From assembly GCA_964498325.1 (NCBI GenBank), contig CAZCHF010000001.1, positions 127,225 through 191,224 on the forward strand: a stretch of DNA of 64,000 bases. The letters are read 5' to 3'. A program made the position numbers and the translations under genes. Position 1 is the stretch's first letter. Each line of letters starts with the position of its first letter. The stretch is from an uncultured Candidatus Kuenenia sp. GTDB taxonomy: Bacteria > Planctomycetota > Planctomycetia > Pirellulales > UBA1268. Below are positions 6,973 through 41,474 of the stretch, piece by piece. The notes under the pieces are model-generated. The model did not search any database. It was not told where the DNA came from and was given only the letters and a program-made list of their open reading frames with translations.

Positions 6973-6997
6973 TCCCCACGAAATGCAGGTGCCTTGT

Positions 6998-8725
6998 ATG
7001 CGCCGATGGTTCGCTTTGACTTGCCCGCTGGTCGTTGGTGCGATCCTCACGGCTGTTTCTGGCAGTGCCTTTGGACAGAGCGAGGTATCGTTCCCCGCGG
7101 CTGACTTCGCCAAGCTCGACACGTTCGAGAGCCTGAACCTCGAAGATGCCGACAAGCTCTTCGCGAAGGGCGACTACAAAGGCGCGTTCGCCGCCTACAA
7201 GGCCCACTCGACCGAGTTCACGAAGAGCGCGGCCCTCCCCTACGTGCTTCTCCGCATAGGCCGCTGCCTCCACAAACTCGAGAAGCGAAATGCCGCGATC
7301 CAGGCCTACCAGGAAGTGATCGACTATTTTCCAGATGATGTGGCCTATGCCGCGGCGGCCCTTTACTACATCGGCGAGTGCCACGGCCAAAACGGCGAGG
7401 AATCCAAGCAGACCGCCGCCTGGGCCAAGCTCGCCAAGGACGACGATTACGTGAACCAGCCCCTCTCGGGCACGGCACTCACGTTTTTGGCGTCTCGAAT
7501 GGCCAAGCTCGGCGAGTTCGAAGAGGCCGCCGAGTACCAGTGGCGAACAGCGATCGCTTTTTTGAAATCGAATCCCAAGGCGGCTGCCGAAGGTCGCGAC
7601 GCGGTGATCCAGCACTACGTCGTCCGCAATCCGAATCATGAGAAGCTCGCGGAGTTTTACGTCGCTGTCGGAGGCTTCGACGGCCGCGGTCACAAGATCA
7701 CTGATCCCGAAAAGGATGATCGCTACTGGTCCACCGCTCTGAACGTGGCCAGCAAGGCATCCGGTGAGGCGAAGCCGAAAGCCTGCAGTTACTGGGCCGC
7801 GAAGTTCGGAGACCGGTTTCCAGAGAACGACGGTCTCCGCAAGCTCGCGAGCGACGTCCAGCTCAGTGCCGACGGGAACGAGGAAGCCTGGCGGGCTCGC
7901 CTCGAAAAACAGTTTACCCGAACGCCGGCGACGCTCGACCGAGTCCTCACGTGGTGTGACTGGTACCGGGGAAACCCGGCCGCAGCGAACGAATTTTTCT
8001 CGAAGCACGGCCGGCCGCTGGCTTCAGGCGTCACCGAGATCGCCCAACGGGTGAACCTCGTCGAACGACTCCATCGGCTCGGTCTCAAAGAGGAATCGGT
8101 CGCCGTGCTGCGGTCGACGAAGCTCGAAGGCCTGTCGGACAAGGAACTTGTCGCACTCGCAGGAGTGGCTGCGTTGTCAGAGCCCGAGGAAGGCGTGATG
8201 CGATATTACGCTCGAATCAAGGATCCACTCGTGGCCGCGAAAGGGCGATTCGACTACTACAACGCCCGCACCCACAGGAACCAGCCATTCATGGAGAAGG
8301 CGCTCGCTGAAATAGCCACCCTTGAAAAGTCAACGACGTTTGCCGGTGCCGATCTCTCCTGGGCGAAGGCCGATCTCTTGCGCGGACTGGGCCGTCATGA
8401 AGAAGCAATCAAGGTCTATCGCCAAGTGAATCGGCAGCCCGATTCCACCTGGGCGATCGCAGACTGCCTTGTCGCGCTCAAGATGTATCCCGAGGCCATC
8501 AAGACGGTGGGCGAACTCGAGGCGGTGGGGGGTGATGTCGCTCCGCAAACCGTGCTGAAGGCGGCCAACATCTACAGGGCCGCCGGAGACAAAGGTGGGG
8601 AGGTCAAACAACTCCGCGCCGTTCTCAAGCGATACCCCAAAAGCCGCCAGTCCAGCGAGGCACACAATCGGCTCGAGGCCTACGGCGTTCCCCTCGTCGG
8701 AGGGGAATCGGAAGCCGAGGATTGA
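6998..8725 (+). CDS. Secreted tetratricopeptide-repeat protein (BamD/CpoB-like TPR style)
   Basis: Signal peptide MRRWFALTCPLVVGAILTAVSGSAFG; TPR motifs at both ends (AIQAYQEVIDYFPDD..AALYYIGECH; LRAVLKRYPKSRQSSEA). Confidence 0.85.
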   Translation: MRRWFALTCPLVVGAILTAVSGSAFGQSEVSFPAADFAKLDTFESLNLEDADKLFAKGDYKGAFAAYKAHSTEFTKSAALPYVLLRIGRCLHKLEKRNAAIQAYQEVIDYFPDDVAYAAAALYYIGECHGQNGEESKQTAAWAKLAKDDDYVNQPLSGTALTFLASRMAKLGEFEEAAEYQWRTAIAFLKSNPKAAAEGRDAVIQHYVVRNPNHEKLAEFYVAVGGFDGRGHKITDPEKDDRYWSTALNVASKASGEAKPKACSYWAAKFGDRFPENDGLRKLASDVQLSADGNEEAWRARLEKQFTRTPATLDRVLTWCDWYRGNPAAANEFFSKHGRPLASGVTEIAQRVNLVERLHRLGLKEESVAVLRSTKLEGLSDKELVALAGVAALSEPEEGVMRYYARIKDPLVAAKGRFDYYNARTHRNQPFMEKALAEIATLEKSTTFAGADLSWAKADLLRGLGRHEEAIKVYRQVNRQPDSTWAIADCLVALKMYPEAIKTVGELEAVGGDVAPQTVLKAANIYRAAGDKGGEVKQLRAVLKRYPKSRQSSEAHNRLEAYGVPLVGGESEAED

Positions 8726-8857
8726 AACCAACGCTATACGAACCATCCCGCGTTGTCTTCGTTCGACGGGCCACGAGCGAATGCCCAACCGCTGCACTCA
8801 GTTCGAGCGGGAACTACCATAGAGACTTCTCATCTTTCCCTCAGCAGGCCAAGCCTC

Positions 8858-21700: not shown

Positions 21701-24700
21701 GGTCGATCGCATCACCAAGAACTTCTCGGCGGCTCTCACGGAGCTCGACAAGCTCGCGGCGATCGGAAACCCCTCTTTCAGCCAACGGATCCGCTTTGCC
21801 CGGGCCGAGGTCCTCATGGATCAGGAGAATCTCAAGGAGGCACTCGATGAGATCGCGGCGGTGCTCCGGCAGGAACCAAAACATCCCGACGCTTTGATCC
21901 TCCAGGGAAAAATTCAGACCGCGATGCGGAAGCTCATCGAGGCGAGCGAGATCCCGCTCGGCCCCTCGCAGACAGATACTGTCCTCGTGCCCGGCGAAGC
22001 CGTGAAGATCAACCTCCGCGATCCCACGCTCGGCGTGTCGGGCGTCTCAGCCGAGATCGAGGTCGAAGTCTGGGCGAAGTCGGGCGATCGTGAGTTCGTG
22101 CTCCTGGCGCCGTTTGGTGACAGCCGCGAGCAGCTCCGCGGCGAACTGCCGACGGCCCTCGGCGCACCAACGCCCGGAGACAAAAAACTCCAGGTCCTCG
22201 GTAACGACGAAATCCGCTTCGGCTACTCGCCGCGGTTTCGGGCGAAAATGCGCGATCTCCCCCCTGATCCAGACACGGTGATCGGCGTGGCGGCAGACGC
22301 TCGGCTCGGCATTTCGGCCGGAGGGTTTCCGTCACTCGAAGGTGAGCGAAGACTCTCGATCGAGGAGTTGGGGGTGTCGTCGGCACAAGCGAAACTCGGG
22401 TTTCGATCGGTCCGTCCTGGCAACCCTGTCTACCTGCGGGTCATCGATGCCGACCAAAGCACGACGCCGGCGCCCGACACCGTGACGGTGGCCCTCGAAG
22501 CGACGAGCGGCGATGCGGTTCGGTCGCTCGTACTCACGGAGACCGGACCGTTCACGGGCGTCTTTGAAGGCGTTGTGCAGACAGCTCCTTCGCAGGCACT
22601 TGCGTTTGCATCCGAGAATGCCCCAGGACGCGACGCCATCATGGCAATCAGTCCCGGGAACCTCCCCGGGTGGCAGGGCAAGTCTGGCGAGAAGGAGGCT
22701 GTGCGAATCTTCGGTGTGGATCTCAACGACGACGTCCCGCTTTCCGTGATGACGTTCCAATCGCCGGCGGGCCAGGAGCCGACTCACTTCCTGGTTCAGA
22801 CCTCGCAGAACGGCCGCGATTGGGTGACGCGATCCCGCAACCGCGGCGCGGCCGATCCCGCGCCGTTCGATGGCAGGCCACAGGTGACATCGTTTCCGAC
22901 CTACGGCACGGGGTCGATGGGCATCTCGGCGCCGAAGGGGCGCGAACTGCCCGCCGAATGGCGCGAGAAAATGGACGTGCTCGCGACGCGTGCGTCGGTG
23001 AACTTTCTGGCGGCCACCGTGCCGAACCTCACGGCCAAGCCGCTGCCAATCGTAGCCTGTAGCCATCCCGGGTATTCGGCCCTCGTCCGTTTCACGGCGG
23101 TCTTCTATCAGCCGGAGTCTGCGATCCGCCGGTTCCAGGTCACTGGCTGGCCCGCGAATGACGACAAGGGCTCGCCGCAGACGTTTTTCTTGATCGACGG
23201 CCAGCCGGCCGCGAAGGACGCAACCGATCCGCTCATGATCGAGCGCGAACTCGCCCCAGGCCTCCACACGATCGAGGTCTGGCGGCATGCGAGCCGCAGC
23301 ACGTTTGAGACGGCGACACCCGTGATCCTCTGCGATGCGGAGGGCAAGGAGCAGCTCGTGCCATGTCCTGACGCCATGTTCGATCCGAAGATGTTTCCAG
23401 CCGCAGTGCGATCTGATCTGCCACTTCCGGCAGTCGTTTCCTCGCGGGCCGGCACCCTCGACGTGGCCTTTGCTACCGGTACACGGGCCCGACTCGTGCG
23501 GCTGGTCATCGTCGGATTCTCAGGCGTCGCACCGGCCATTGAGAAGGTGATGCTGACCGACGCGACGGGCAAGAAACGGCTTCCCGTGGCCGAAGACGCC
23601 GTCGCGCTGCGTAACAACGAACAGCTCGAAGTGCTTCCTGGTGACACCGTCACGGCACGCTACATCGATCCGGTGCCCGCCACGCCAAAACGGACGCGGC
23701 ACGAGGGCCGGCTCACCGTCGCCTATGACACCGCGACGATGACCGCTTCGTTTCTCAACTACAAGGAGACGCGGAATGGCCGCGAGCTCGTGCTCGAGCC
23801 GATTCGCCGGTTCGGCTACGGCGCCGCCGTCGGCATCGTGATCGATGACGCCGACATGGATACGAGCGACAAGCCTGACGTGGTCGACTTCGTGATCAAG
23901 AAGGCTGATGGCACGACCGTCACCATGAAGGCGGTCGAGACCGACGTGCACAGCGGTCGCTTCATCGGTCGCGTGTTCCCGGTCGAAGGGAAGCCGGCTC
24001 GGGAGTCGGAGATTCAGGTGGCCAAGGGGGCGAGCCTCACGGCGACCTATCGCGACATGGAGAACCTCGATCCCGGGGTGCCGGCAACCAGAAGCGTCAC
24101 GATCATGCATGCTCGCTATCAGACCCCCATGATGGCCGGCTACGAGGTGACGAGTTCGCCGCTGGACACGCCGGTTCTGCAGCCTTCCGCAGCGACTTCC
24201 GGCCCTGGGGCAAGCCGTGGCCGCGCTTCCGCCGAGATTCCCGCGCGGCAGTCGCTCGCTTACACCCATGTGGCTGAATCAAAACTCACTGCAGAACCGC
24301 TGCCGGCGGTGCTCGGGGCCACCGTGCGCGTCGACGTGATCGTGCCCCATCTGGCCTTCGCCCAGAGCAGCACGGTCAACGCGTTCGTGCAGACCGAGGC
24401 GGCACGGCAGGCCGCGAAGGCCGCCGGATCAAAGGCGGAGAACGCTTTCGACATCTCCCTGCCCGGCACGCTCCGGCTCACGTCCGCCCTCGACCGTCCG
24501 AGTGTCGTCACCCCGCCCGGCTACGCACTTACAACGCCGCCCCATCCCCCGACCGGAAAACCGCCGCTCGACGAGGGGCGATTTGCCATCGCCGTGCCGC
24601 TGGTGCTCGGTGATCCTCCGACGCGAAGCTTCGCCGACAAGGCCGCCGAGGCCCTTCCGAGTTCGGCGATTCCCGAGGGCCTCGCTGTGAAGGCGGGCGA

Positions 24701-26180
24701 CGTGGTCCACGTCGGCTTCCCGTGGAAGGACGAGCAGGGCAAGGTGGCCTGGAAGACGGTGTCGTTCACCGTGGGGAGCCATGCCTTCCTCGACGTGCTT
24801 TCGGGCGATGCCTCGTCGATGCTCACCGCCGCGTATGTCGGCGAACGCATCGTGGTTCGACTCGTGGCCCCCGGCCTCGACCGTGGCCCGGAGTGCGACA
24901 CGACCCAAGTCACGCTCTCGACCGGCGGCGGCGCCACGACCCCGCTTGCCATGCGGGAAACCGAGCCCCACTCCGGCGTCTTCATCGGTGGCTTCACGAC
25001 GTCCTACGCCGACGGCGATGCCCCGTCGGCCGATGCGACCGGGTCGCTCGAGTCTCAGGGGCTCCCGGTCCGCTACGGCGACACCGTCACGATCACCTAC
25101 GACGGCCAGACGAGAACAGTGGCGATCAACAAGGGCGCCGACGGTCTGATCGAGCCGTTCACGAAGCGGTACGGGGGCGACCAGATGGCCGTCCGCACCG
25201 CATTCACGCTCGCCGAGTGTTTTCTGGAGCTTGCGAAGAAGCATGCGGAGAGCGGTGAGGAGAGTCTCGCCCGGCGAGAGATCGACCACGCCGAAAAACT
25301 GCTCGCCGAAGCCCTCGCGAACCGCCGCGATCCCGACATCCAGGCCCAGGCCGAATATCTCCTCGGCAATCTCGCCCACGAGTTTGCAAACCTCGCCAAG
25401 AACGAGGAGACCCGGCGGCCGCGGTATCAGCAGGCGCTCAAGCGTTTTTCCGAGATCCCCCTGGAATACCCCGACACCGAGTTTGCGTCGAAGGCGCAGT
25501 ACAAGACGGCCCAGACCTACGAGAAACTCGGCGAGGCCGAAAGCGCCGTCGAGGAGTATGTGAAGCTCGCTTACAAGTATCCCGGCGACGAGCTCATCCC
25601 GTCGGTCATGTCCCGGCTCGGAGATTATTTTCAGAAGAAGGGGCAGAGCTTGAAGGAGAAGGCGGACGCCATCCGCGAGAAGACCGATCCGAAGTCCAAG
25701 GGCGAGGTGATCGTGCTCGACGAGGCGTCGTATCCGGAGTTCCTCAAGGCCGCGCGGGTGTTCGAGAAGCTCAACGAACGCTTTCCCGACGACCCGCTCG
25801 CGCCGCTGGCTGGCCTCCGCGCGGGCCAGAACTACATGCGTGCCCACCAGTACGATCCCGCCGTCAAGGCCTTTGAAGCACTCATCGAAGTGGAGAGCTA
25901 TGACGGCCCGACGCTCAGGGCTCAGGCGATGTACTGGGGGGCGTATGCCCGGGAACTCTGGCCGGTGGCGGAAGACAACTGGAAGATGCGGGGTGATCTC
26001 ATGAACGGTGCCTACAAGCTCTACCGCCGGATCACCTTCGAATACCCCGACTCCATCTGGGCCAAGCGGGCCCGTGGCCGGCTAGCCGACCCTGCGTTTG
26101 CGGACATTGCTCAGAGAGACGCAGAGGAGCGGCAAAAGATGATCGAGGCCCTCGAAGAAGCGCGGAAGAACAGAAGGTGA
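18783..26180 (+). CDS. Giant (2465 aa) secreted TPR/alpha-solenoid protein, colinear paralog of 11182-18786
   Basis: ATGA overlap; signal MKRHQTLLAAVILAALIAVTASA; same module order; ETGPFTGVF, ETDVHSGRF, ETEPHSGVF motifs. Confidence 0.9.
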   Translation: MKRHQTLLAAVILAALIAVTASAAPLDDAMAAFAKAQPQGEPAVLGVLEEGIREGRSAQAFVTVAAWLDTHPVTNQSLLFTAARSAEYAGEWSVAVSFYRQLLENPKADQRLVAEAAPAIYRLLLGPLGQTDTAYLFMKEHGDRLRAVGGARRYDDWFLATAKARNDVPAACARLAAMCRDGATDLAARRDDFEWVCEKLEPYPFAEGAWLDAAVKLASEPNLPAPFKARLNWVIAIGPFTKEATALSQANKPIPDSLRAKPLAAAKELIAALPMEGSILAARGWMAYSGRHTPSVWNYIASGREAKAAPILEALATLSPQQAHDVLTAKGCPRGRPVSFMFLPAEWRALVAKAPALFNTLAAADVPLLEKTITVDEAKALAPHLARNPHRDAAVIRAIATAGSLEFPAITAAMASEMWRFAEPQAAIEAAKQVSAAKDQKEDRDALQALSKPDPRVSKIEASVGKTASPPDRAAAFQALSQDLLGATPTIPGALALWNKLFSTAPEAESAAMLATLANNSGGDSGSLFRRAAAVANLGGHVLYTQATLTDYFLNNGDQRRRFVTAAAPVVAAMQPHLAAQAQAGRLSEYPFAVWLHAADPKDPATRDFMRQLAASPAYAALPRAYRAAASDSVHFGDIAFTPAQRAVAPRDLSEPLLSLPANAPPEAVEAALEAAIQRVAAAPQPVALIGVGRVAGVPAWSPKLRSLAFTLFREHSPLASYPGDAGYQQLVERICREFSDAKQWQAIESYSAGLWHAAASLDYGKPPQAAAALTSLAASALESGNPSAALTLARDGLRGAFGRSIAQSTDPNQQARLGQLRRISSKAGLALGASEIPVDESNPAYPIFKSAAEFAQGNLEAAWNLYVDHADVLPQALRKLSPDYAFWLLARCVSEGRAADGESLIKELSLWSREVPGLLNADQDARLKIAYADVSFLRGGYPTARAWYRKVADAAEFKNTEMHLLAGLGSAKVDRITKNFSAALTELDKLAAIGNPSFSQRIRFARAEVLMDQENLKEALDEIAAVLRQEPKHPDALILQGKIQTAMRKLIEASEIPLGPSQTDTVLVPGEAVKINLRDPTLGVSGVSAEIEVEVWAKSGDREFVLLAPFGDSREQLRGELPTALGAPTPGDKKLQVLGNDEIRFGYSPRFRAKMRDLPPDPDTVIGVAADARLGISAGGFPSLEGERRLSIEELGVSSAQAKLGFRSVRPGNPVYLRVIDADQSTTPAPDTVTVALEATSGDAVRSLVLTETGPFTGVFEGVVQTAPSQALAFASENAPGRDAIMAISPGNLPGWQGKSGEKEAVRIFGVDLNDDVPLSVMTFQSPAGQEPTHFLVQTSQNGRDWVTRSRNRGAADPAPFDGRPQVTSFPTYGTGSMGISAPKGRELPAEWREKMDVLATRASVNFLAATVPNLTAKPLPIVACSHPGYSALVRFTAVFYQPESAIRRFQVTGWPANDDKGSPQTFFLIDGQPAAKDATDPLMIERELAPGLHTIEVWRHASRSTFETATPVILCDAEGKEQLVPCPDAMFDPKMFPAAVRSDLPLPAVVSSRAGTLDVAFATGTRARLVRLVIVGFSGVAPAIEKVMLTDATGKKRLPVAEDAVALRNNEQLEVLPGDTVTARYIDPVPATPKRTRHEGRLTVAYDTATMTASFLNYKETRNGRELVLEPIRRFGYGAAVGIVIDDADMDTSDKPDVVDFVIKKADGTTVTMKAVETDVHSGRFIGRVFPVEGKPARESEIQVAKGASLTATYRDMENLDPGVPATRSVTIMHARYQTPMMAGYEVTSSPLDTPVLQPSAATSGPGASRGRASAEIPARQSLAYTHVAESKLTAEPLPAVLGATVRVDVIVPHLAFAQSSTVNAFVQTEAARQAAKAAGSKAENAFDISLPGTLRLTSALDRPSVVTPPGYALTTPPHPPTGKPPLDEGRFAIAVPLVLGDPPTRSFADKAAEALPSSAIPEGLAVKAGDVVHVGFPWKDEQGKVAWKTVSFTVGSHAFLDVLSGDASSMLTAAYVGERIVVRLVAPGLDRGPECDTTQVTLSTGGGATTPLAMRETEPHSGVFIGGFTTSYADGDAPSADATGSLESQGLPVRYGDTVTITYDGQTRTVAINKGADGLIEPFTKRYGGDQMAVRTAFTLAECFLELAKKHAESGEESLARREIDHAEKLLAEALANRRDPDIQAQAEYLLGNLAHEFANLAKNEETRRPRYQQALKRFSEIPLEYPDTEFASKAQYKTAQTYEKLGEAESAVEEYVKLAYKYPGDELIPSVMSRLGDYFQKKGQSLKEKADAIREKTDPKSKGEVIVLDEASYPEFLKAARVFEKLNERFPDDPLAPLAGLRAGQNYMRAHQYDPAVKAFEALIEVESYDGPTLRAQAMYWGAYARELWPVAEDNWKMRGDLMNGAYKLYRRITFEYPDSIWAKRARGRLADPAFADIAQRDAEERQKMIEALEEARKNRR

Positions 26181-28324: not shown

Positions 28325-28669
28325 ATGCCCTCCTTGCCACGCCCAGCCCGCGAACTTTTCTTCCGCGAGACCGGACGGGAGACCGACCCGGAGCTCTGCC
28401 TCCAGAGCCTTACCCGTGTCGATGCCGGGTCGTGGTTCACCAAAACTCCTGCCTGGCTTTGTATCACCGGGGATCGCGTGGTCGTGATCGTTGCCGGCCG
28501 TCGCCACCATGTCGCGAGCATGCCGCGTGCCGCGTGCCGCGGCAGCCGATACGATCACGCCACAGGCGAAGTCGTGATCGAGCCTGGCGATGCCCTCCGG
28601 TTCAATCGCCTCGCCTTCCCGCCACGGGAGGCCCTTCGCATCCTCCAGCTTCTTGGCGTCGAAAACTGA
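28325..28669 (+). CDS. Small hypothetical protein, possibly bacterial PH-like fold
   Basis: ATG 28325; beta-rich (WLCITGDRVVVIV) with a C-terminal amphipathic helix; fills the gap before exbB. Confidence 0.55.
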   Translation: MPSLPRPARELFFRETGRETDPELCLQSLTRVDAGSWFTKTPAWLCITGDRVVVIVAGRRHHVASMPRAACRGSRYDHATGEVVIEPGDALRFNRLAFPPREALRILQLLGVEN

Positions 28670-28735
28670 CTGCCTCACCGCCGCCCAACGTCATCCTTTC
28701 CACGATCGTTGTCATCCGAGAGTCGTTCACATCCC

Positions 28736-29380
28736 ATGATTGAAACCTTGATTCAGGGCGGGCCGCTGATGATCCCGCTTGTGTTCTGCAGCCTTGCGGC
28801 ACTGGCCGTCGTCTTCGATCGCTGGATGGCCTTTCGGCAGAATTCCAGGGTCGACGTCAAGGCTCTCCGCGCCCGCGTGCTCGCGCACCTCAAGAAGGGT
28901 AGCCTGCCGGCGGCCATAGAAGACTGTGAAACGTCTCGCGGTCCCGTGGCCGCGGTGATGCTCGCAGGCCTGAAGAGCTACTCACATCTCAAGGCCAAGG
29001 GAGAGAACGCCGAGACGATGCGGATGGTCGTGGGCGAAGTGATGCAAGACGCCAGCGCTCAGGCGATGAGCGCCGTGAACAACCGCCTCGACGTCCTCAC
29101 GACCGTAGGCACTGCCGCGCCGCTCTTGGGAATGACCGGCACCGTGACGGGCATGATCGGCTCGTTCGCAAGTCTTGCGGAAGCGGGCAGTTCGGCCGGA
29201 GGTGGTGGCGCCGTGGCCAACGGCATCGCCGAGGCCCTCATTACGACGGCTGCCGGCCTTCTCATCGCCTTGGCCGCGGTGATTCCGCAGAGCCTCTTCA
29301 ATCGGTGGAGCGACGAAATCGAACTCCAAATCGACGAAGCCTCCGCCGAACTCGTCGAACACATCCTCACCAGCCACTAG
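28736..29380 (+). CDS. exbB: MotA/TolQ/ExbB proton channel family protein
   Basis: GGPLMIPL TM1; APLLGMTGTVTGMI and IAEALITTAAGL with conserved Thr residues. Confidence 0.92.
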   Translation: MIETLIQGGPLMIPLVFCSLAALAVVFDRWMAFRQNSRVDVKALRARVLAHLKKGSLPAAIEDCETSRGPVAAVMLAGLKSYSHLKAKGENAETMRMVVGEVMQDASAQAMSAVNNRLDVLTTVGTAAPLLGMTGTVTGMIGSFASLAEAGSSAGGGGAVANGIAEALITTAAGLLIALAAVIPQSLFNRWSDEIELQIDEASAELVEHILTSH

Positions 29381-29463
29381 TTGTACGCGGACGAAGCCCT
29401 CTATGGCCTTTGTCCGCTCGAGGCCGCGGCTTCAACGCCCCCAGGCATGTCGGTCCCTTTACG

Positions 29464-29868
29464 ATGAAACTCCGTGAGAAAAAGAATCGAGAAGGTGGCA
29501 TCCCCACCGACTCGTTTTCCGACATCGCGTTTCTCCTCATCATCTACTTCCTCGTCGCCACGACGCTCGTGCGGGTGCAGGCGATTACCAGCGAGATGCC
29601 GTCGGGTGACAAGGCAGCCCAGGCCCAGTCGGAGAAGACGCCGATCGTGAACCTGCGGGGCGGGCAGATCTTCTTCAACGACGCGCCGGTGACGATCGAA
29701 GCGCTCGAGGAGAGCCTGGCGGCGCTCGACTTGCCGGCCCGGGCCCCGGACAAGCGGGTGGTGATGCTCGAGAGCGCGACCGGCACGCCCTACGACATCT
29801 ATTTCGAGGCCCTCGCGGCGATCAGTGGAAACGGCGGGGTCGTGGCGATGGTGAAACCAGAGAAGTAG
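29464..29868 (+). CDS. exbD: ExbD/TolR family protein
   Basis: SFSDIAFLLIIYFLV TM with the conserved Asp; periplasmic IFFND...VVMLES. Confidence 0.88.
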   Translation: MKLREKKNREGGIPTDSFSDIAFLLIIYFLVATTLVRVQAITSEMPSGDKAAQAQSEKTPIVNLRGGQIFFNDAPVTIEALEESLAALDLPARAPDKRVVMLESATGTPYDIYFEALAAISGNGGVVAMVKPEK

Positions 29869-29872
29869 CCCC

Positions 29873-30313
29873 ATGCCGAAGAATCGCAAACTCGCGAGGC
29901 GGAAGAAGCGGCGGACGGTGCCCGTGCCGACCGCCAGCATGGGCGACATCGCGTTTCTGCTCATCATCTTCTTCCTCGTCTGCAGCGAGACGACGCAGGA
30001 CGCCGCCGACATCCAGGTGACCCTGCCCACGTCGGCGCGGGTCGAGAAGGCGAAGCCCGGCGCCGTCGCCCGAGTCGCCATCGACAAGGACGGCCAGATC
30101 TATTTCAACGGCGGCCGTGTCGAGTCCGCCAAGGATGTCGAACTGGGAATCAGTGCACTCGTGACCCGAACGGTGTCGGAGGACCAGCGGCACGTCCAGT
30201 TCCGCTGCGATGCCGGCGTCACCAATGACATTTTCGAACCAGTCTTGACTGCCATCGCCGAGGGCGGAGGCATCCTCAGCGCCATAGGAACCAAAAAGGA
30301 GAGCACACCATGA
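29873..30313 (+). CDS. exbD: ExbD/TolR family protein (second copy)
   Basis: SMGDIAFLLIIFFLV; VAIDKDGQIYFNG; VQFRCD. Confidence 0.9.
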   Translation: MPKNRKLARRKKRRTVPVPTASMGDIAFLLIIFFLVCSETTQDAADIQVTLPTSARVEKAKPGAVARVAIDKDGQIYFNGGRVESAKDVELGISALVTRTVSEDQRHVQFRCDAGVTNDIFEPVLTAIAEGGGILSAIGTKKESTP

Positions 30314-30801
30314 GTGCCACACGTCGATCGAGTGCCGAGCCCGAGGATCTCATGCGGGATTTTCGAGGTGGCGGGCTTATGCGGTTTGCGATCTTGGCGC
30401 TGGTCGTCCATGCGATCGTGATCCTCGCCACGAGCATTCCCTGGCTTCGGGAGACCTTCATGGGGTCGGCGACCGCAGGCATGACCGAAGAGGAAAAGCT
30501 CGAGGCCGCGGTCCGCGAGGCGACCTCGAAGATCTCGGCCATCGCCAAGGAACATGGCGTGTCGCCACTCGAACTCGGGGCCCGCTTCGGCGGTAACGGT
30601 AAGTCATCGACGTCGGCGAGCAAGGCGCCAGCCGACAAGCCGAAGGCACCGGCTCCTGGAACAACTCCTGCCGCGCCGGCCGCCACTGAGACACCAGCAG
30701 GTCAGACGCCGCCCGCTGACACGCCGCCAACGGCTGCCCCGCCCGTCCCGCCCGGCCCGTCGCTGCCCGCGGTGGATGACAACGTGGATCTCTTCAAGTA
30801 G
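30310..30801 (+). CDS. Single-TM protein with TM His and Pro/Ala/Thr-rich tail; TonB/TolA-like N-terminal half without a TonB C-terminal domain
   Basis: ATGA overlap with exbD; FAILALVVHAIVILATSIPW; tail APAPGTTPAAPAATETPAGQTPPADTPPTAAPPVPP. Confidence 0.65.
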   Translation: MSATRRSSAEPEDLMRDFRGGGLMRFAILALVVHAIVILATSIPWLRETFMGSATAGMTEEEKLEAAVREATSKISAIAKEHGVSPLELGARFGGNGKSSTSASKAPADKPKAPAPGTTPAAPAATETPAGQTPPADTPPTAAPPVPPGPSLPAVDDNVDLFK

Positions 30802-30828: not shown

Positions 30829-32451
30829 GTGATGACCACCGCCAGCCCGGACTTCGAGACCGGGACGATCGACGCGATTCCAACCGCGCCGTCCGTCGCG
30901 AAAGCGACGGTGGTGGCGATCGGTGGCGTGCTGGCCGGGCTGATCGGAATCGCGGCCTGGTGGTTTTTGCCCGCTGCCCTGGAGAAAGTGCTCGCGGCCA
31001 ATCCTTCGATCGCCGGGCTCTTCGGACGAAACCTGGTCGCCGTGCTCGCGAAGGGATGTTTTCTCGCGGCCGTGGCCGTCGGTGGCCTCTGCATCGCCGC
31101 GGGCCTGCTCGCCCTGGTGCGATCCCGGGCCACGTGGTGGTTGTTGTTCCTCGCCGTCGCAACCATCCATGTCGTGGCAGTGGGCTTCGTGGGCACGGCC
31201 TGGTATGCCACGTCCACGATCCTGTCGGCGGGTCTTCAGATCGATGGGACTGACCAGGACAAGGTCACGCTGACGCTGCTCTGGTGGAAGCTCGCCTGGC
31301 CGGCACTCGCCATGATGGTGGCCGCTGCCTGGATGCAGACGATGCTCCGGAGCCGGTCGGTCTACGCCGCGTTCACCGGCAGCGAGGGGGAGCCGCTTCG
31401 TGGTGACGAGACGCTCGAGAATCTTCGCACCGGTGGCCGCGATCCGCGGCACCGCAAGAGTCTCTATGCCAGTGGACTCACGCATCTGCTCGTAATCGTC
31501 GTGATTCCCTGGCTCATGCAGATGGACGGCTGCGTGGAGCCCTACCGCGTGCCGAAAGGGAGCGGCAACCCGGTGGTCGCCATCGTGAAGATGGTCAAGC
31601 CGAAGAAGAAAAAGAAAAAGAAATCGATCACTGTCAATCCGAACTCGGCCATCGTCTTCGAGAAGCCCGACCTCGACCACACCGAGGCGGATGAAGAGAT
31701 GAAGGAGATGACCGAACACAAGTACGAGGTGGCCGCGACCAGCGGCGCGACCGGCAACCTCGGCAAGGGAGGAGGCACCGAAGGGGGTTGGCCCGAGGGC
31801 ATGGAGGATTACAAGATCCGGTTCATCCGGCTCGATCACGGCGGGTCCGGCTGGGACGACGGCATGGACGAAACCGGGGCCGACATCAACTTCCTTCGCG
31901 AGTTCGCCCAGGCCACCGGCTTCAAAAAGATCGCCCGCAGCGGCGAGAGCCACTCGATCGCACTCCTTCGAAAGTATCCCCGCGACGGGTTTCCGCCGTT
32001 CGTGTACCTCACCGGCAACGGTGCCATGGGCCGCACGACGCCGTCGGACGACAAGATCCTGCGTGAGTATTGCCTTGGCGGCGGTCTTCTCATCGCCGAC
32101 GCCGGCAGCCTCGCCTTCGACCAGTCGTTCCGGCACTTCATCCATAAGGTTTTTCCGGACAAGCCCCTGGTCGACATCGCCGACGACGATGAGCTCTACC
32201 GGCTCCCGTTCATGTTTCCCGATGGCGCGCCGGCCTTTTGGCACCACGGCGGCAGGCGTGCCCTCGGGATCAAGCACGAGGGACAGTGGGTGGTCTTCTA
32301 TCACCCGGGCGACATGAACGATGCCTGGAAGTCGCCGGGCTACACCGATGTGTCTCCCGAGATGCGGGCCAGCGCCATGCATCTTGGCATCAACCTCGTG
32401 CGGTATGCCTTCGACCGCTGGAACGACGCCGTGGCCAAGGCGGGGAAATGA
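30829..32451 (+). CDS. Polytopic membrane protein with a TonB-like SxxxH TM and a C-terminal DUF4159 domain
   Basis: About 5 TM segments; SGLTH; K-rich linker; C-terminal FIRLDH...NFLREF...PFVYLTG...LREYCLGGGLLIADA...LGINLVRYA typical of DUF4159. Confidence 0.8.
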   Translation: MMTTASPDFETGTIDAIPTAPSVAKATVVAIGGVLAGLIGIAAWWFLPAALEKVLAANPSIAGLFGRNLVAVLAKGCFLAAVAVGGLCIAAGLLALVRSRATWWLLFLAVATIHVVAVGFVGTAWYATSTILSAGLQIDGTDQDKVTLTLLWWKLAWPALAMMVAAAWMQTMLRSRSVYAAFTGSEGEPLRGDETLENLRTGGRDPRHRKSLYASGLTHLLVIVVIPWLMQMDGCVEPYRVPKGSGNPVVAIVKMVKPKKKKKKKSITVNPNSAIVFEKPDLDHTEADEEMKEMTEHKYEVAATSGATGNLGKGGGTEGGWPEGMEDYKIRFIRLDHGGSGWDDGMDETGADINFLREFAQATGFKKIARSGESHSIALLRKYPRDGFPPFVYLTGNGAMGRTTPSDDKILREYCLGGGLLIADAGSLAFDQSFRHFIHKVFPDKPLVDIADDDELYRLPFMFPDGAPAFWHHGGRRALGIKHEGQWVVFYHPGDMNDAWKSPGYTDVSPEMRASAMHLGINLVRYAFDRWNDAVAKAGK

Positions 32452-33719
32452 CGATGCAGTGGGATTGGAACTCCTTTGGCGCGGTCGGATACCTCGGGGT
32501 CGTGGTGTCGTTCGTGGTGCCCGTGCTCTGGGTGATCGGCCGGCTGCGCAAGGGAAACCCACGGCTGTTGGTGACGGCCGTGGGCATCGCGGGGATCGCC
32601 GCTCTCTGTGGCCAGATCAACTCCACCTTCCATGTGAATGCACTCGAACCCGACCGCTCGGCCGTGGAGGCGGCGGCGAAGGCAGCGGCCGAGGAACTCC
32701 ACAAGCGGAAGCTCGCCGCGATCGATGCCACCCGTGAGCAGGCGGCGGCCGACATCCGCTTCGCTGAGGATGCCAAGGACGACTCGCTCGACAAGGCCGG
32801 GCTCGACGATGGCGATCTCAAGTACCTCGAGCAGATCGAGGCGGAAGAGTCGGCGGCGACGCCTGAATGGAAGAAGAAAAAGAAAACCCGTGGCGAGGGA
32901 GGCACGCCCGACGACAGCCTCGAAGCCGAGCTCGATGGCGACAAGAACCCAGCCGGCATGGCGTCCGGGTCGACCACGGAGGAATCGAAGCGTCCAGCGA
33001 TCGTCGTCTCCGAAGCCGCCTACTCGACCGCCCACCGCGTCGACCGCTGGAACCTCTGGTGGACGAGATTCTTGGTGGTCGCTGCGATGGCCATCCTGGG
33101 GTACGACTGGCTCCGTGCTGCGAACGACTACGCGCGGGCCTACTCGCCGCTGCGAGTACCGAGCACCCTCGTCAATGCCATGAGGCCTCTTGCCCCGCTC
33201 ACGATCCGACCGGAGCCGCCGCGCCGCTCCATGCCCGAGGAACTCGCGTGGTTTCTCCGCCGTGGCGATTCGTTCGTCTACCTTGCGGGCACGGCTGACG
33301 CGGCCGACCGAGCGGAGGCCGCGCTCGCAACGTTTGAAAAACAAAGGCATCCGGTGCAGGTCTTGCGAGTCGGCCCAAAGGGGGAGCGGTGCAGCAACCG
33401 CTTCGTGTTTGAGGCGGTTTGGTTCGGACGATGTTCGTTCATCATCGCCGACCCCGCCCGGGCCGAGCGTCTCGTGAAGGAATTCTGTATCTTCCTGGAA
33501 GAGCGGAGAGGGACGCGGGCACAGGCGCGGCAGACGGTGCATGTCGTTTGGGACCTTGCCGGCGCCGTGCCTCGCGACAAAGTTCCGGCCTTTGTCGAAG
33601 CATGGAAAAAACTGATCCAGGCTCTGGCGTGGCGCGGAAAGCACGCGGGTTTTTCGGTGTTTCTCTCTCGGCAGCCTGAGCCGACAACCACCTCAACGAA
33701 GGCGGAGAACGCAGCATGA
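32448..33719 (+). CDS. Hypothetical membrane protein (about 3 TM, long acidic loop with a poly-Lys tract, C-terminal alpha/beta domain)
   Basis: ATG 32448 overlaps the upstream TGA (ATGA); stop overlaps the next ATG. Confidence 0.75.
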   Translation: MTMQWDWNSFGAVGYLGVVVSFVVPVLWVIGRLRKGNPRLLVTAVGIAGIAALCGQINSTFHVNALEPDRSAVEAAAKAAAEELHKRKLAAIDATREQAAADIRFAEDAKDDSLDKAGLDDGDLKYLEQIEAEESAATPEWKKKKKTRGEGGTPDDSLEAELDGDKNPAGMASGSTTEESKRPAIVVSEAAYSTAHRVDRWNLWWTRFLVVAAMAILGYDWLRAANDYARAYSPLRVPSTLVNAMRPLAPLTIRPEPPRRSMPEELAWFLRRGDSFVYLAGTADAADRAEAALATFEKQRHPVQVLRVGPKGERCSNRFVFEAVWFGRCSFIIADPARAERLVKEFCIFLEERRGTRAQARQTVHVVWDLAGAVPRDKVPAFVEAWKKLIQALAWRGKHAGFSVFLSRQPEPTTTSTKAENAA

Positions 33720-36700
33720 TGATCATCAGAATCGGCCACTTTCTGGGACTTGCCGTCGTCACGGCCATGGTCATGGCCACCACGACCACGGCGCTGGCCG
33801 ACGACGAGCGAGAAGTCACCGAAGAGCAGAAGGCCGCGGTGGCTGGAGCAGTCGACGAGACGGAGAAGCCCACCCGTCCCGACGAACTACCCGACTTCAC
33901 GAAGGGGGCGCCCGTTTCCGCCGAGATGCAGGTATGGAGCCTCGGGCCGACCGGTATGGTCGGCGTCTGGGCCGGTGGTTTTGGAGGTGATCAATTCCTG
34001 GTTCAGACCGTTCTGCCGGGCTCACCGGCCGTAGGCAAGATCCTTCCAGGCGACGTCCTGTTGGGCTTGAACGGGACGCCTTTCAAGGCAGGTGGCCACC
34101 TCGGCGTCCTCTTCGGCAACGCGATCATCGAAGCTGAAAAGGAAGAGAACGGCGGGAAGCTCGCACTCTCGGTCTGGCGCGACCGCAACTATCCCAAGCG
34201 GAACGCGACGCTCGACACCGACCGCGTGAACCTCGAAGAGGTGTTTAAGTCGGCCGAAGACGGCGATGCGCTCTATGACTGGAAGGCCGTGGAGGAGAAG
34301 AAGGCCGAAACGGCCCGCCAGAAATTCGACGAGTTTCCAATCGACGGCTTCACGCTCGATGTGGAACTGAAGCTCAGAACGTTTCCTGCGTACGCCGATA
34401 CCGCGCCCTTCGACTGCCCGAAGACGATGGCGATTCTCGAAGACGCCTGGAAGGTGCTGGAAAAGAAATTCACCAAAGACCCCAAGGTTCCGAACTCGGG
34501 TCGCGGCGGGACGACCGAGGCGCTGGCCCTTTTGGCGTCAGGCAAACCCGAGCACCGCAAGCTCGTGCATGACTGGGTGCGGAGCCCCCACTGCAAACAG
34601 TGGCAGCCAGAATTTGCCGGCTCGATCGACATGATGAAGCCTCCAGGCGGGAAGCTTACTTGGACCGTCGGGTTCGTGGGACTTCCCTGCGCGATCTACT
34701 ACGACTGCACGGGAGACGAGTACGTGCTTCCGGCCTTGAAGGAATGGGCCGTGAAGACCGCCATGGGCCAGAGCGGCGGCGGCACGTGGGGCCACACCTT
34801 CGCCTGGCCGATGTTTAACGGCGGTAAACTTCACGGATCCAATCCAGGATACGGCGGGTTGAATTGCGCGGGAGTCCACTGCTTCTTCCTCCTGGCCCTC
34901 GCCAAGAAGCATGGCATCGAGCACCCTGAAATTGATGCGGCGATCGCACGTTCGCACCGATTCTACAGCTCTTTCGTCGACCAGGGAGCCATCGGGTATG
35001 GCGACCATCCCGCCGCCGATACCGACGACAGCAATGGAAAAAACGCGGGCACTGCCTTTGCGATGAAGCTCATCGGCGATACGTATGCGGCAAAATACTT
35101 CGCAACGATGTCTGCCCACGCGTCGTTCACTGCCCGCGGCTGCCATGGCCACGATTGGCATACCAACTGGTCCTGTTGGGCTGCGAGCCTCGTCGGCGAC
35201 GAGGCGAGGATCGCCGCCGAGCGCAACATGCGGTGGCGCCGAACGCTCTGCCGTCGCCATGACGGCAGCTTCGTGTACCACTCGCCTTCTATTAAACACA
35301 GAACCCTCCGCGACCCAACCGCGACGGAGGTGCTCCATCAGGCGGTTGCCCTGCGGCAGACGCTCATCACCGGCAAGGACCCGGACAAGAGCCTCTGGCT
35401 CAATGACCGGGAATTCAAGCACCTGATGGCAAGCGCCCAGGGTCAATTCAACGACCCCGTGCTCGACGCGAAGGTGGGCACGCCGTGGCCTCAGAGGTCG
35501 ACTGACGAACTCTTCGACCTGCTTGACATATTCATGCCGAAGACCCGGCGCTTTGTGGCGGCAGAGTTGGGCAAGCGATTCAAGGGAGGCGAGAAGGAGA
35601 TTGCGCCGCGGCTTCTCGCGCTTCTTGAAAGCGACAATCCGCGACTGCGGGATGGCGGCCTGCGGGGTCTCCATTTCTGCGGGCCTGACACCGTCTTGGC
35701 GAACCTCTCGACGATCACGAAGAGGCTCAATGACTCGCACGACTTCGTTCGCAAGACGGCCGTGGGCGTCGTCGAGGTCGCGGCGATGAAGACCGACACG
35801 CAAGAGGCGCTCCTTGCGGCCGCCGCCGCGGATCCCAAAGCGATGGCTCCAAACAGCGTCCGCAACGACATCCAGCTGTCGCTGTTCGCCGGCGACACGC
35901 CACTGGCCAAGTCGCCGTTCAAGGCCGGCTTTGACGAGCGGCTCGTCCGCGACGCCATCGACGGCCTCCTGACGCTCGACCCGGTCGGTGGCAGAGGGTT
36001 CCTGGCCTCACGGATCAACGTCTGGGACAGGGACACGGTCGTGCGGCTGGCCAGCCCTCTGGTATTCATCGCCGAAGAGGAACAGGTCAATGACACGATG
36101 TTCGCCGGCCGTGTGAAGCCGGCTCGCGCAATCCTCCAACGGCACGATTTTCGCGAAGGCTTTGATGGCGCCTTGTACTTGCTCAGGCGGCAGGCCGCCC
36201 TCCCGCGGCATGTGCGCCCGTATGTGACCATGAGGTATTCGATTCTCGATCCCATGCTCGTCAAAAAGCATCCGGGAGTGTTCCGGGACTTCATGCCGGC
36301 ATTCCACACCGTGCTCATCGACAATCCGGTCGCGACCGTCACGGAAACGCATGGCACGCTGAAAATCGAAGTGCCCTTGTTCAGCTTCCTTTCGTTGATC
36401 GCCGCGGCACCGCCTGTCTCGCCGAAGCCGAGCATCGAAGAGGAGGTTCGGCGCGTGTTCACGGCAAAGCTCGAGGCTGCCGGCAGCGCGGATGCCAAGC
36501 TCGCTCTGTGCCGCGCAACGCTTGCCGACGATTCCCACCGCACGACGTTTGAATGTCTGGCAGCCATGGACTATCTCGTGCAGACGATCGGCAACGAGGC
36601 ACTCGATGACCTTCTGCCGCTCTTCGGCCGGAACGACTGGCGGGTGCGAGATCATGCCAGGGCCAAAGCGGCTGAGCTTGCCAGCAAGGATGGTGGCAAG

Positions 36701-37690
36701 GCGCTCGTTTCGCGATTCGTTGCGGCAAAGGACGATGATATCCGAGTCGGGATCTTGCACGCGCTCGGGGCAAGTCAGAGCAAGGCCGGCCTGGTTGTCG
36801 CAACGTCGGCGCTTGAGGACGCCAGCCCAGCCGTGCGCGGCGCGGCTGCCGAGGCCGTCGTGGCCATCGGAGGCGACGCATCGCTCGAACCCGTCCTTGC
36901 ACACTTCAAGACGGCGTCGGCGCCCGACGATCTGCGCGGTTGCGAAAAGGCGATCCTGGCCCTCCGTGCGTCTCCGTCGCTCGCGTCCCAGATTCGCGAC
37001 GCGCTCATTGCAGGACTGCCGCAGACCGAGGGCACCAGACGAGAATCGGTCTTGTGGCTGCTCGGCCAGATCGGTGATGCGCCGAGCCTCGCTGTCCTCG
37101 AGAAGGCCGGGGCCACCAAGGTCGCGGCGGATTTCCGCGTGGTCGTCAATGCCCTTTCCTATTCTCCCGCGATCGAGGCTGATGCCGTGCTGCTCAGGCT
37201 TGCCAAGTCCGACAAGGCCAAGGCGCCGATCGTCGCCGCCGAGAGTGTTCGGCGGATGGTGCTCGGTCCGAAGGGCTTTGGTGATCGTACGGACGATCAG
37301 CGAATCGCGTTCGCAGGTGGCATCCTGCAACTCGCAAGCGACGTCCGCCTCGTGACGTTCTTGGGCCGCATGGGGTCACCCCGTGCCATGCCGCTCTTGG
37401 TGACCGAGCTTCGCAAGGGGTTCAAGCCTGCCGCAGAGAGTGTCGTCACGAATGCCGAAGCGATGAAAAATCTGCCGCCAGCCGATGCCGCGATCGTGGC
37501 CCAGGCACTTCGGGACGTCATGGAGTATCTCGAGGTGACCGCGCTTCGGGGTGGCCCCGATGGGAAGGATTTTCGTGAGTATCCGGTCGCCAAGGCGCTC
37601 CAGGCCCGCGCCGGCCAGGCGCTCGTGAAGGTCCATAAGCCCGAGGCGGCTCCCATCCAAGGTTTTCAGGGAATCGACATCGATCTATGA
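33716..37690 (+). CDS. Secreted PDZ-like + DUF6288-like (alpha/alpha barrel) + HEAT-repeat protein
   Basis: Signal peptide; LGPTG...VLPGSPAVGKILPGDVLLGLNG (PDZ); APFDCPKT, GQSGGGTWGH, GYGGLN, GAIGYGDH, DSNGKN, GCHGH pattern recalled for DUF6288; C-terminal HEAT repeats. Confidence 0.75.
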   Translation: MMIIRIGHFLGLAVVTAMVMATTTTALADDEREVTEEQKAAVAGAVDETEKPTRPDELPDFTKGAPVSAEMQVWSLGPTGMVGVWAGGFGGDQFLVQTVLPGSPAVGKILPGDVLLGLNGTPFKAGGHLGVLFGNAIIEAEKEENGGKLALSVWRDRNYPKRNATLDTDRVNLEEVFKSAEDGDALYDWKAVEEKKAETARQKFDEFPIDGFTLDVELKLRTFPAYADTAPFDCPKTMAILEDAWKVLEKKFTKDPKVPNSGRGGTTEALALLASGKPEHRKLVHDWVRSPHCKQWQPEFAGSIDMMKPPGGKLTWTVGFVGLPCAIYYDCTGDEYVLPALKEWAVKTAMGQSGGGTWGHTFAWPMFNGGKLHGSNPGYGGLNCAGVHCFFLLALAKKHGIEHPEIDAAIARSHRFYSSFVDQGAIGYGDHPAADTDDSNGKNAGTAFAMKLIGDTYAAKYFATMSAHASFTARGCHGHDWHTNWSCWAASLVGDEARIAAERNMRWRRTLCRRHDGSFVYHSPSIKHRTLRDPTATEVLHQAVALRQTLITGKDPDKSLWLNDREFKHLMASAQGQFNDPVLDAKVGTPWPQRSTDELFDLLDIFMPKTRRFVAAELGKRFKGGEKEIAPRLLALLESDNPRLRDGGLRGLHFCGPDTVLANLSTITKRLNDSHDFVRKTAVGVVEVAAMKTDTQEALLAAAAADPKAMAPNSVRNDIQLSLFAGDTPLAKSPFKAGFDERLVRDAIDGLLTLDPVGGRGFLASRINVWDRDTVVRLASPLVFIAEEEQVNDTMFAGRVKPARAILQRHDFREGFDGALYLLRRQAALPRHVRPYVTMRYSILDPMLVKKHPGVFRDFMPAFHTVLIDNPVATVTETHGTLKIEVPLFSFLSLIAAAPPVSPKPSIEEEVRRVFTAKLEAAGSADAKLALCRATLADDSHRTTFECLAAMDYLVQTIGNEALDDLLPLFGRNDWRVRDHARAKAAELASKDGGKALVSRFVAAKDDDIRVGILHALGASQSKAGLVVATSALEDASPAVRGAAAEAVVAIGGDASLEPVLAHFKTASAPDDLRGCEKAILALRASPSLASQIRDALIAGLPQTEGTRRESVLWLLGQIGDAPSLAVLEKAGATKVAADFRVVVNALSYSPAIEADAVLLRLAKSDKAKAPIVAAESVRRMVLGPKGFGDRTDDQRIAFAGGILQLASDVRLVTFLGRMGSPRAMPLLVTELRKGFKPAAESVVTNAEAMKNLPPADAAIVAQALRDVMEYLEVTALRGGPDGKDFREYPVAKALQARAGQALVKVHKPEAAPIQGFQGIDIDL

Positions 37691-41466: not shown

Positions 41467-41474
41467 GGATTCGC

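Follow-up and report, generated by a model that had tools for sequence, protein, structure and literature searches.

A 64,000-nucleotide stretch of contig CAZCHF010000001.1 (positions 127,225 to 191,224, forward strand; assembly GCA_964498325.1) from an uncultured Candidatus Kuenenia sp. of the Pirellulales, referred to here as the window and numbered from its own first letter, encodes a 540-amino-acid (aa) membrane protein at 30829..32451 (+), behind genes for an ExbB/ExbD-type motor. This protein, read from a stop-free translation, ends in a DUF4159 domain and is proposed here to be a motor-coupled force transducer. A preliminary description of the locus had placed a Ser-x3-His motif in its last transmembrane (TM) helix and DUF4159 in the position of the TonB C-terminal domain, and had read DUF4159 as the energised effector of a TonB-like transducer. 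The translation indeed reads SGLTH (S215-G-L-T-H219) at 31471..31485 (+), the Ser-x3-His core of the SHLS (Ser-His-Leu-Ser) motif, and these residues fall inside TM5 (aa 206-232, 31444..31524 (+)), a helix in which S215, H219 and P227 are conserved. The four extra helices said to precede the motif helix were recovered at residues 23-57, 70-97, 100-134 and 145-173, with hydropathy and AlphaFold2 in agreement on all five. The AlphaFold2 model was built from 123 sequences and had a mean predicted local distance difference test (pLDDT) score of 86.5, rising above 95 in the membrane part. The four accessory helices (aa 23-173, 30895..31347 (+)) are poorly conserved in sequence, and among distant family members their number differs or helices are missing, with complete single-TM variants represented by P0150, P0223, P0226, P0236, P0237 and P0240.

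TM5 is preceded in the model by two short cytoplasmic helices (176-183 and 191-201), and column counts in 102 representative homologues defined a conserved cytoplasmic motif directly before it, GDRxxENxRTxGRDPxYRKS, which in the window reads GDETLENLRTGGRDPRHRKS (aa 192-211, within a juxtamembrane segment at aa 187-211, 31387..31461 (+)). Beyond TM5 lies a long, flexible, predicted periplasmic linker (aa 233-324, 31525..31800 (+)), which is rich in Lys, acidic residues and Gly rather than Pro and is predicted to be disordered at residues 250-307 (pLDDT <50). The succession of Lys-rich, acidic and Gly-rich tracts noted earlier was located at 257-265 (KPKKKKKKK), 277-300 and 305-324. In the family consensus the linker elements follow the order GC-VEPY-VPKGSGNP, a D-box-like strand, poly-Lys, NPNSAIxF..PDLD, an acidic helix and GKGGGxxGGWP.

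DUF4159 follows TM5 and the linker as a C-terminal head at aa 331-528 (31819..32412 (+)), predicted to be periplasmic. It is the sole Pfam domain of the protein, matched over model positions 1-202 of 202 with E = 7e-29 and 101.2 bits against a cut-off of 25.9, and NCBIfam gave no match for the 540-aa protein. Foldseek against the PDB returned one strong match, 4i66 (Hoch_4089), with E = 1.8e-9, a TM-score of 0.81 over ~200 residues and 22% identity, a relationship also found by phmmer (E = 8e-4). Weak Foldseek matches were to glutamine-amidotransferase domains (8hx8_B, E = 0.018) and the IFT52 GIFT domain; there was no vWA structure among the 50 matches listed, and neither a TonB_C nor a TolA C-terminal domain was found in the protein by Pfam, NCBIfam or Foldseek. 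As modelled, the head is a class-I-glutamine-amidotransferase-like alpha/beta fold without a conserved nucleophile. Relics of an amidotransferase are present in an L-x-A-D-x-G elbow (LIAD-A425-G in the window) and in YHPGD where the enzymes have HPE, and elbow residue 425, Ala in the window, is A, N or C across the family. A reading of DUF4159 as a catalytic glutamine amidotransferase was rejected for lack of a conserved nucleophile, and the variability of this position makes Cys-dependent activity unlikely, although family members with ADCG may conceivably have a thiol-dependent activity. A conserved polar cluster of D424, H473, H492, D495 and E373 suggests a putative binding site.

When TM residues were shuffled, 1.2% of trials placed SxxxH in the last TM and 6.7% placed it in some TM, so a single occurrence is weak evidence and the weight falls on conservation. 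Across 120 homologues (58-91% identity), S215 and H219 each reach at least 98% conservation, while most of TM5 varies. For a wider view, 1.8 billion representatives clustered at 50% identity were searched, and among the best 150 matches the 102 covering the motif region were aligned to a hidden Markov model of residues 187-252. His occupied the H219 position in 86 of the 102, and the S215 position was Ser in 73 and Ala in 17, with intervening and flanking TM5 positions reaching a top-residue frequency of only ~20-50%. The position at His+7 (226) was broadly kept hydrophobic (L 48, I 20, V 9 of 102). Among distinct module-bearing ORFs (open reading frames) from fetched loci, 149 of 150 had S..H and the remaining one A..H. 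The motif is therefore conserved in DUF4159 proteins encoded beside exbBD, the property on which the preliminary description had staked its reading, and it persists down to about 30-35% identity while surrounding TM positions vary. The idea that Ser and His are present merely to pack TM5 against TM1-4 was ruled out, since complete single-TM variants retain S..H.

A second feature of the TonB pathway may be recognizable just past the membrane. The D-box of TonB, 45-ISVTMVT-51, is a Pro-flanked element captured as a strand by the ExbD dimer, with two hydrophobic/hydrophilic alternations followed by a hydrophobic-hydrophobic-hydrophilic run (PMC10907165). The E. coli TonB sequence used for comparison matched PDB 9ddo_F over residues 1-239 (E = 3.8e-152) and agreed with the D-box peptide entry 8p9r_C as well. 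In the window protein, P248-VVAIVKMVK-P258 (31570..31602 (+)) begins 16 residues after TM5, its TonB counterpart being P44-ISVTMVT-P52, and the C-terminal half, VKMVKP, parallels TonB VTMVTP. As a sequence pattern only, the element agrees with the published motif at 6 of 7 positions. Across the family it reads NPVVAxVKxVKP in consensus, with poly-Lys after it, and distant single-TM members have alternating strands of the VRVQVKRVK- or VQVQVQV-type at the same place. The 248-258 element thus resembles, at the level of sequence, the ExbD-binding D-box of TonB.

The motor itself is encoded upstream on the same strand. A MotA/TolQ/ExbB-family proton-channel subunit of 223 aa (28709..29380 (+); Pfam PF01618, E = 4e-25) is followed by two ExbD/TolR paralogues, each matching PF02472 at E = 7e-16 and each keeping the TM Asp: one of 137 aa (29455..29868 (+)) with a conserved TM motif SDIAFLLI, and one of 146 aa (29873..30313 (+)) with an invariant GDIAFLLI. 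The best NCBIfam match of the channel subunit was TolQ, at 108.6 bits against an equivalog cut-off of 221. The motor as a whole scores nearer to TolQ/TolR than to ExbB/ExbD, the subunit's TolQ and ExbB scores both lying far under the family cut-offs, and 'TolA/TonB-like' is therefore a better label for the system than 'TonB-like'. In E. coli, TonB Ser16 and His20 meet ExbB at Ser34 and Trp38, close to where TM1 ends on the cytoplasmic side, and Trp38 in turn touches Pro190 (PMC12215075). Ser28 of the window ExbB, which pairs with the TM1 Ser of Serratia ExbB (7ajq) and is taken as the equivalent of E. coli Ser34, is invariant in 63 orthologues.

This gene arrangement is widespread. A scan with one genome per species found 80 loci at 51-91% identity in Planctomycetota, Verrucomicrobiota (Akkermansiaceae, Luteolibacter, Rubritalea), Lentisphaerota and Kiritimatiellia, the best locus match (91%) being a Pirellulales metagenome-assembled genome (MAG), and a metagenome scan added 80 further loci. 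Close loci with enough flanking sequence showed a constant order of giant tetratricopeptide repeat (TPR) gene, small protein, ExbB, ExbD, ExbD, p163 (a 163-aa single-TM protein), DUF4159 protein, p423 (a three-TM protein) and DUF6288/HEAT protein. Distant variants at 33-38% identity, complete single-TM forms included, retain the motor-gene arrangement, and their clusters keep the order TPR, ExbB, ExbD(-ExbD), small protein, DUF4159. A complete 377-aa single-TM form is preceded by a 2722-aa TPR protein, ExbB, ExbD and a 126-aa protein, a 382-aa form by ExbD and a 122-aa protein, and a 542-aa form (33% identity by tblastn, 35% by phmmer) by TPR, ExbB, ExbD, ExbD and a 147-aa protein.

We then asked how closely the motif follows the motor, scoring a DUF4159 gene as assessable if it had at least 1.5 kb of upstream sequence and as motor-linked if ExbB/ExbD lay no more than 6 kb upstream on the same strand. 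Motor genes were found upstream of 100 of 102 module-bearing DUF4159 genes and of 1 of 8 module-less ones (Fisher's exact p = 8.9e-9), indicating that the motif tracks motor genes. The control group was small, at 8 assessable genes, because a scan seeded with signal-peptide-type DUF4159 returned mostly motif-bearing genes. The sole module-less gene with a motor upstream belongs to a motor-linked cluster, as its second DUF4159 gene, and two paralogues with only a cleavable signal peptide had no motor genes nearby.

Tandem DUF4159 genes were seen in some clusters (L083, 1-2429; L090, 390-2800; L079, 11478-12656; and L108/L109). The second gene encodes either a single-TM form after a five-TM form or a free signal-peptide form after an anchored one, and one free signal-peptide copy, P0142, is 66% identical in the DUF4159 domain. 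These pairs suggest that DUF4159 heads may act in pairs.

Two lines of evidence bear on which side of the membrane the head occupies. A Sec or lipoprotein signal peptide opens many of the short proteins related to this DUF4159 subfamily, in which the domain therefore acts outside the cytoplasm. For members of the five-TM family, the mean number of membrane-proximal Lys and Arg residues was 9.6 on the predicted cytoplasmic side (N-terminus, loop 2-3 and loop 4-5) versus 3.4 on the other, values that fit an N-in, DUF4159-out topology. The poly-Lys tract lies more than 15 residues past the membrane, within a long segment, and the positive-inside rule is weak in long segments distant from the membrane. 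DUF4159 is accordingly predicted to be periplasmic from the sequences of the signal-peptide paralogues and the loop charges; a cytoplasmic head, the placement that would have undone the transducer proposal, found no support in silico.

The genes of the surrounding array lie on the same strand. Its upstream members are a 620-aa TPR protein (6863..8725 (+); Pfam TPR_6, TPR_8, TPR_19) and an 810-aa TPR protein with weak YfiO/BamD-like matches (8753..11185 (+); TPR_2, TPR_6, TPR_16, YfiO), and the distant loci L089 and L174 also have TPR genes ahead of ExbB. They are followed by giant secreted protein A (2534 aa, 11182..18786 (+)), which has a signal peptide, TPRs at both ends and a beta-rich middle (Pfam TPR_6 E = 9e-16, TPR_16, YfiO, weak MG2), and by giant secreted protein B (2465 aa, 18783..26180 (+)), which has a CpoB/BamD-like C-terminal TPR region (TPR_6, YfiO). 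The giants are adjacent paralogues, about 32% identical by tblastn, and the stop codon of A overlaps the start codon of B. Both carry TPRs at either end, with a C-terminal TPR region resembling YfiO/BamD and CpoB. No neighbour accompanies the motor and DUF4159 genes more constantly than giant B, which stands directly upstream in related loci and in L081, L089, L174 and L175 and whose C-terminal 399 aa give a weak but specific match to the CpoB TPR domain 6g5s_A (E = 0.003). CpoB is a TPR protein of the tol-pal operon, and the CpoB-like end of giant B together with motor scores nearer TolQ makes the system look Tol-like in organisation.

Between giant B and ExbB, nearly all loci keep a small conserved protein, p169, detected by tblastn as ~114 aa without a TM helix (28325..28669 (+), within ORF 28160-28669) and without a Pfam or NCBIfam match. 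A DUF1559/prepilin-type gene with an N-terminal methylation motif and an EF-hand gene (26404-28163 (+)) separate giant B from p169 in the window; this pair looks like a lineage-specific insertion, because the giant gene directly precedes the small protein in related loci. A second DUF1559 gene lies at 4876-6081. Downstream of the DUF4159 gene, p423 (32448..33719 (+)) was called from its ORF frame, overlap and hydropathy. Its start codon and the DUF4159 stop share the letters ATGA, an overlap suggestive of translational coupling, and the protein has three TMs, a long acidic coiled periplasmic segment with a KKKKK stretch, and a C-terminal alpha/beta domain for which there was no database match; it follows the DUF4159 gene in close loci, L175 and L157. 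The last conserved cluster gene encodes a secreted 1324-aa DUF6288 and HEAT-repeat protein (33716..37690 (+); DUF6288 E = 8e-85, HEAT_2), in which a PDZ-motif-like stretch near the N-terminus, GSPAVGKILPGDVLLGLNG, was called by eye. In distant clusters (L083), a HEAT and PA14 protein occupies this position.

Other genes in the window were noted in passing. A 526-aa protein with a SASA (sialate O-acetylesterase-like carbohydrate esterase) domain is encoded upstream of the TPR array at 3066-4646 (+). At 38950-42896 (+), a DUF1549/DUF1553 (PSCyt2/PSD1) protein gene is followed by a DUF1501 gene, a pair that is typical of Planctomycetes and appears unrelated to the finding. A 1417-aa ORF at 54883-59136 (-) ends in the membrane and C-terminal domains of NfeD; it is unusually long for the NfeD family, and the region also has overlapping ORFs on the other strand.

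From these sequence comparisons, the 540-aa protein is probably a periplasmic force transducer of the TolA/TonB type with a different head, DUF4159. Conservation, motor linkage and predicted topology all support in silico the energised-effector reading of the preliminary description, and what changes is its kinship, for which TonB alone is too narrow a name. We infer its docking on ExbB/ExbD, its drive by the proton gradient and its target as follows. TM5 would dock through Ser215 and His219, near the cytoplasmic leaflet, on the outside of a pentameric TolQ/ExbB-like ring that would encircle a heterodimer of the two ExbD/TolR paralogues. Just outside the membrane, P248-VVAIVKMVK-P258 would be captured by the ExbD periplasmic domains in the manner of the TonB D-box. 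Proton flow via the motor would then pull or move the ~90-residue disordered linker, and the pull would be transmitted to periplasmic DUF4159, acting on a partner in the outer envelope, most likely the giant secreted TPR protein with its CpoB-like C-terminus, which is co-encoded in all cluster variants. The four N-terminal TMs would be a lineage-specific accessory, and p163 a second motor-docking anchor of the same machine.

Several observations sit uneasily with this proposal. The last Ser of the SHLS motif (His+11, position 230) is L in 66 of the 102 representatives and Met in the window, and this position is never Ser-dominated, although TonBs themselves conserve Leu at His+7 and Ser at His+11 only poorly (PMC12215075). 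A family-specific Pro occupies His+8 in 93 of 102 and is found in neither TonB nor TolA of E. coli. On the motor side, alignment to 7ajq puts Leu32 of the window ExbB at the position taken as equivalent to E. coli Trp38 and shifts the TM3 Pro by roughly one helical turn. The linker is not rich in proline, its poly-Lys tract would be unusual in the periplasm, and no outer-membrane partner gene (barrel, TonB box) was evident. In five-TM forms, the Ser/His face of TM5 may be either exposed or packed on TM1-4. Loci L100 and L157 lack ExbBD between the giant and DUF4159 genes, the giant TPR gene still directly preceding the DUF4159 gene in both, and one of these two motor-less loci may reflect deletion or misassembly.

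Further difficulties come from p163 and from two lineages in which H219 is replaced by Tyr behind an ExbB-ExbD-ExbD set. p163 (163 aa, 30310..30801 (+)) is a second TonB/TolA-like anchor, identified from hydropathy and an orthologue alignment, with one TM, no globular domain and no Pfam or NCBIfam match. In 66 orthologues P11, F18, G20, H34 and S42 are invariant, and the position four residues before the His is A, T or S, with Thr predominating among orthologues and Ala present in the window. The tail is helical and then Pro/Ala-rich, ending in a conserved acidic C-terminus, ..DDNVDLFK; as a speculation, this peptide is a possible ligand for the neighbouring TPR proteins. All distant clusters examined have at this position a small protein with a ..xxxH.. 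TM and a ..DD..L.K C-terminus. The TM His was retained in every cluster examined, making it more invariant than H219, and p163 may accordingly be the principal or sole docking partner of the motor. In the Tyr lineages L174 (ExbB at 5928-6587) and L175 (ExbB at 5969-6628), the p163-like protein keeps its His and Ala replaces ExbB Trp39 ('DRA' for 'FDRW'), a residue that is invariant in 63 orthologues and also present in L089. These two lineages offer a hint, in their sequences, that His219/Tyr and ExbB Trp39/Ala co-vary between anchor and motor.

The chief competing explanation makes p163 the real transducer and places the DUF4159 protein in the same pathway without ExbB coupling through TM5, whose Ser and His would instead serve assembly with p163, p423 or its own helices. 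A p163-like protein does stand directly after ExbD in every cluster seen, with a His that is never lost even beside Tyr, and its single N-terminal TM and Pro/Ala-rich tail are closer to TonB/TolA domains I and II. However, p163 lacks a globular head and a D-box-like strand, both of which the DUF4159 protein has, and single-TM DUF4159 variants keep S..H in the absence of TM1-4. Relatives of p163 with TonB_C were also lacking: 17 close homologues, in a search limited to close relatives, were all without a Pfam domain. By its sequence features, the cluster would pair two motor-type anchors, p163 and the DUF4159 protein; the published vWA locus likewise has two. One TolQR binds up to two TolA helices (PMC12215075), and with two transducers in the vWA locus the two anchors need not be mutually exclusive. 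We consider it unlikely that p163 is the transducer in place of the DUF4159 protein.

A different role at the same site is also conceivable, in which the DUF4159 protein docks where TonB or TolA would and acts as a regulator, clutch or stator-like tether controlling when or where the motor runs. The extra four-helix domain, the conserved cytoplasmic motif before TM5 and the coupled p423 suggest inner-membrane signalling or anchoring. Against this, minimal single-TM variants without the extra helices, including L081 and L089 that also lack p423, keep the linker, strand and head, and a disordered linker of ~90 residues ending in a globular periplasmic head is the standard layout of a transducer. 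A regulatory function is improbable.

It is more doubtful still that TM5 represents a signal anchor of the lipoprotein or uncleaved type, surviving as a relic or variant, with Ser and His needed for insertion or processing and a link to ExbBD only at the level of the pathway. In its favour, a basic n-region and hydrophobic core are followed by the conserved pair G234-C235 where TM5 reaches the periplasm (C in 70 of 102), and genuine lipoproteins, bearing L-x-G/A-C boxes, occur among the short paralogues. The residues before Cys235, however, are M-D-G in the window and variable in the family, leaving no lipobox; the helix is internal, after four TMs, in most members; polar Ser and His are unexpected in an h-region; and presence of the motif follows that of motor genes. 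The 540-aa protein itself was rejected as a lipoprotein, Cys235 lying after an internal fifth TM with no [LVI][ASTVI][GAS]C lipobox. That SxxxH is a functionless coincidence, as its appearance in some TM in ~7% of composition shuffles might allow, is effectively refuted by conservation to about 30-35% identity amid variable surroundings and by the association with motor genes.

The nine-gene core from giant B to the DUF6288/HEAT protein is conserved across the Planctomycetota-Verrucomicrobiota-Chlamydiota (PVC) superphylum, some lineages of which have been reported without Pal or a recognisable TolA (PMC12204202, supplementary catalogue). This makes the cluster a candidate for an unrecognised envelope machine in a group whose cell biology remains a matter of debate. 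Tentatively, and with somewhat less than even confidence, we suggest that the array is an undescribed proton-driven envelope machine of PVC bacteria in which DUF4159 is the force-delivering head, with a Tol-Pal-like maintenance role or one in large-substrate handling. Its parts would be the TPR proteins, the CpoB-like giants, one TolQ-like and two TolR-like subunits, p163, the DUF4159 protein, p423 and the DUF6288/HEAT protein, and it would be common to Planctomycetota, Verrucomicrobiota, Lentisphaerota and Kiritimatiellia. Such a machine would replace Tol-Pal-like envelope maintenance in lineages without TolA/Pal, or supply the energy for dealing with large substrates in the enlarged periplasm of PVC bacteria. 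For DUF4159, a widespread domain with a solved structure (4i66) and no assigned function, the motor link would give a large subfamily a concrete role. It would also extend the idea of SHLS helices as a portable 'plug' joining varied periplasmic heads to 5:2 proton motors, and two anchors with two ExbD subunits per motor bear on how such motors select and load their clients.

In the literature searched, DUF4159 was named only in the Pfam database paper, DUF6288 was not found, and nothing useful emerged for neighbouring Amuc locus tags. An equation of this cluster with the Akkermansia mucin-utilisation locus MUL1 is probably wrong, because MUL1 is reported in a 2026 paper to be Sus-like and to lack synteny in aquatic Akkermansiaceae, in whose MAGs this cluster is common.

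Compared with E. coli TonB (9ddo, 8p9r), the 540-aa protein shares a predicted N-in/C-out TM helix with Ser-x3-His near the cytoplasmic side, a Leu, Ile or Val common at His+7, a Pro-flanked, strand-prone stretch of similar sequence soon past the membrane, a long disordered periplasmic linker with a Lys-rich stretch, and a gene position beside an ExbB/ExbD-type motor whose motif-contacting ExbB TM1 Ser is conserved. Unlike TonB, it has a DUF4159 head, four extra TMs, a long conserved cytoplasmic motif, Pro at His+8, no Ser at His+11 and a linker that is not Pro-rich, and its motor lacks a Trp38 equivalent in ExbB and uses two different ExbD genes. No TonB-dependent receptor gene, TolB or Pal was found among the window ORFs scanned with Pfam. 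The likeness to TolA and Tol-Pal lies in the SHLS-type anchor logic, a motor subunit that best matches TolQ, a CpoB-like TPR module in the same array, and the precedent of more than one anchor per motor in TolQR-TolA, whereas the TPR module of the window forms the C-terminus of secreted giant proteins of ~2500 aa.

The head matches DUF4159 (PF13709) over the full length of the Pfam model and shares with 4i66 a three-layer alpha/beta fold akin to those of class I glutamine amidotransferases and of GIFT/ThuA-like domains. The Haliangium ochraceum protein 4i66 is a stand-alone domain with no described function, in contrast to the window domain, which is tethered to a motor-type anchor; short DUF4159 relatives likewise differ in having ordinary signal-peptide export and no neighbouring motor genes. 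The closest precedent is the vWA-type SHLS transducers of PVC bacteria (Williams-Jones et al. 2025, Mol Biol Evol; PMC12204202), which connect an SHLS TM helix, through a disordered linker containing a 'motor box', to a globular head that is not of the TonB kind, lie behind TPR-tolQ-tolR-tolR, and occur as two transducers per locus, the seed organism being Tichowtungia aerotolerans. Identity with these proteins was rejected, as the Tichowtungia protein gave a BLASTP E of 0.63 and no Pfam hit; their head is described as a vWA fold on a single TM, and that paper does not describe DUF4159, extra TMs, p163, p423 or DUF6288. Non-TonB heads on SHLS helices are thus already published, and what the present locus adds is a DUF4159 head, extra TM helices and a different set of partners.

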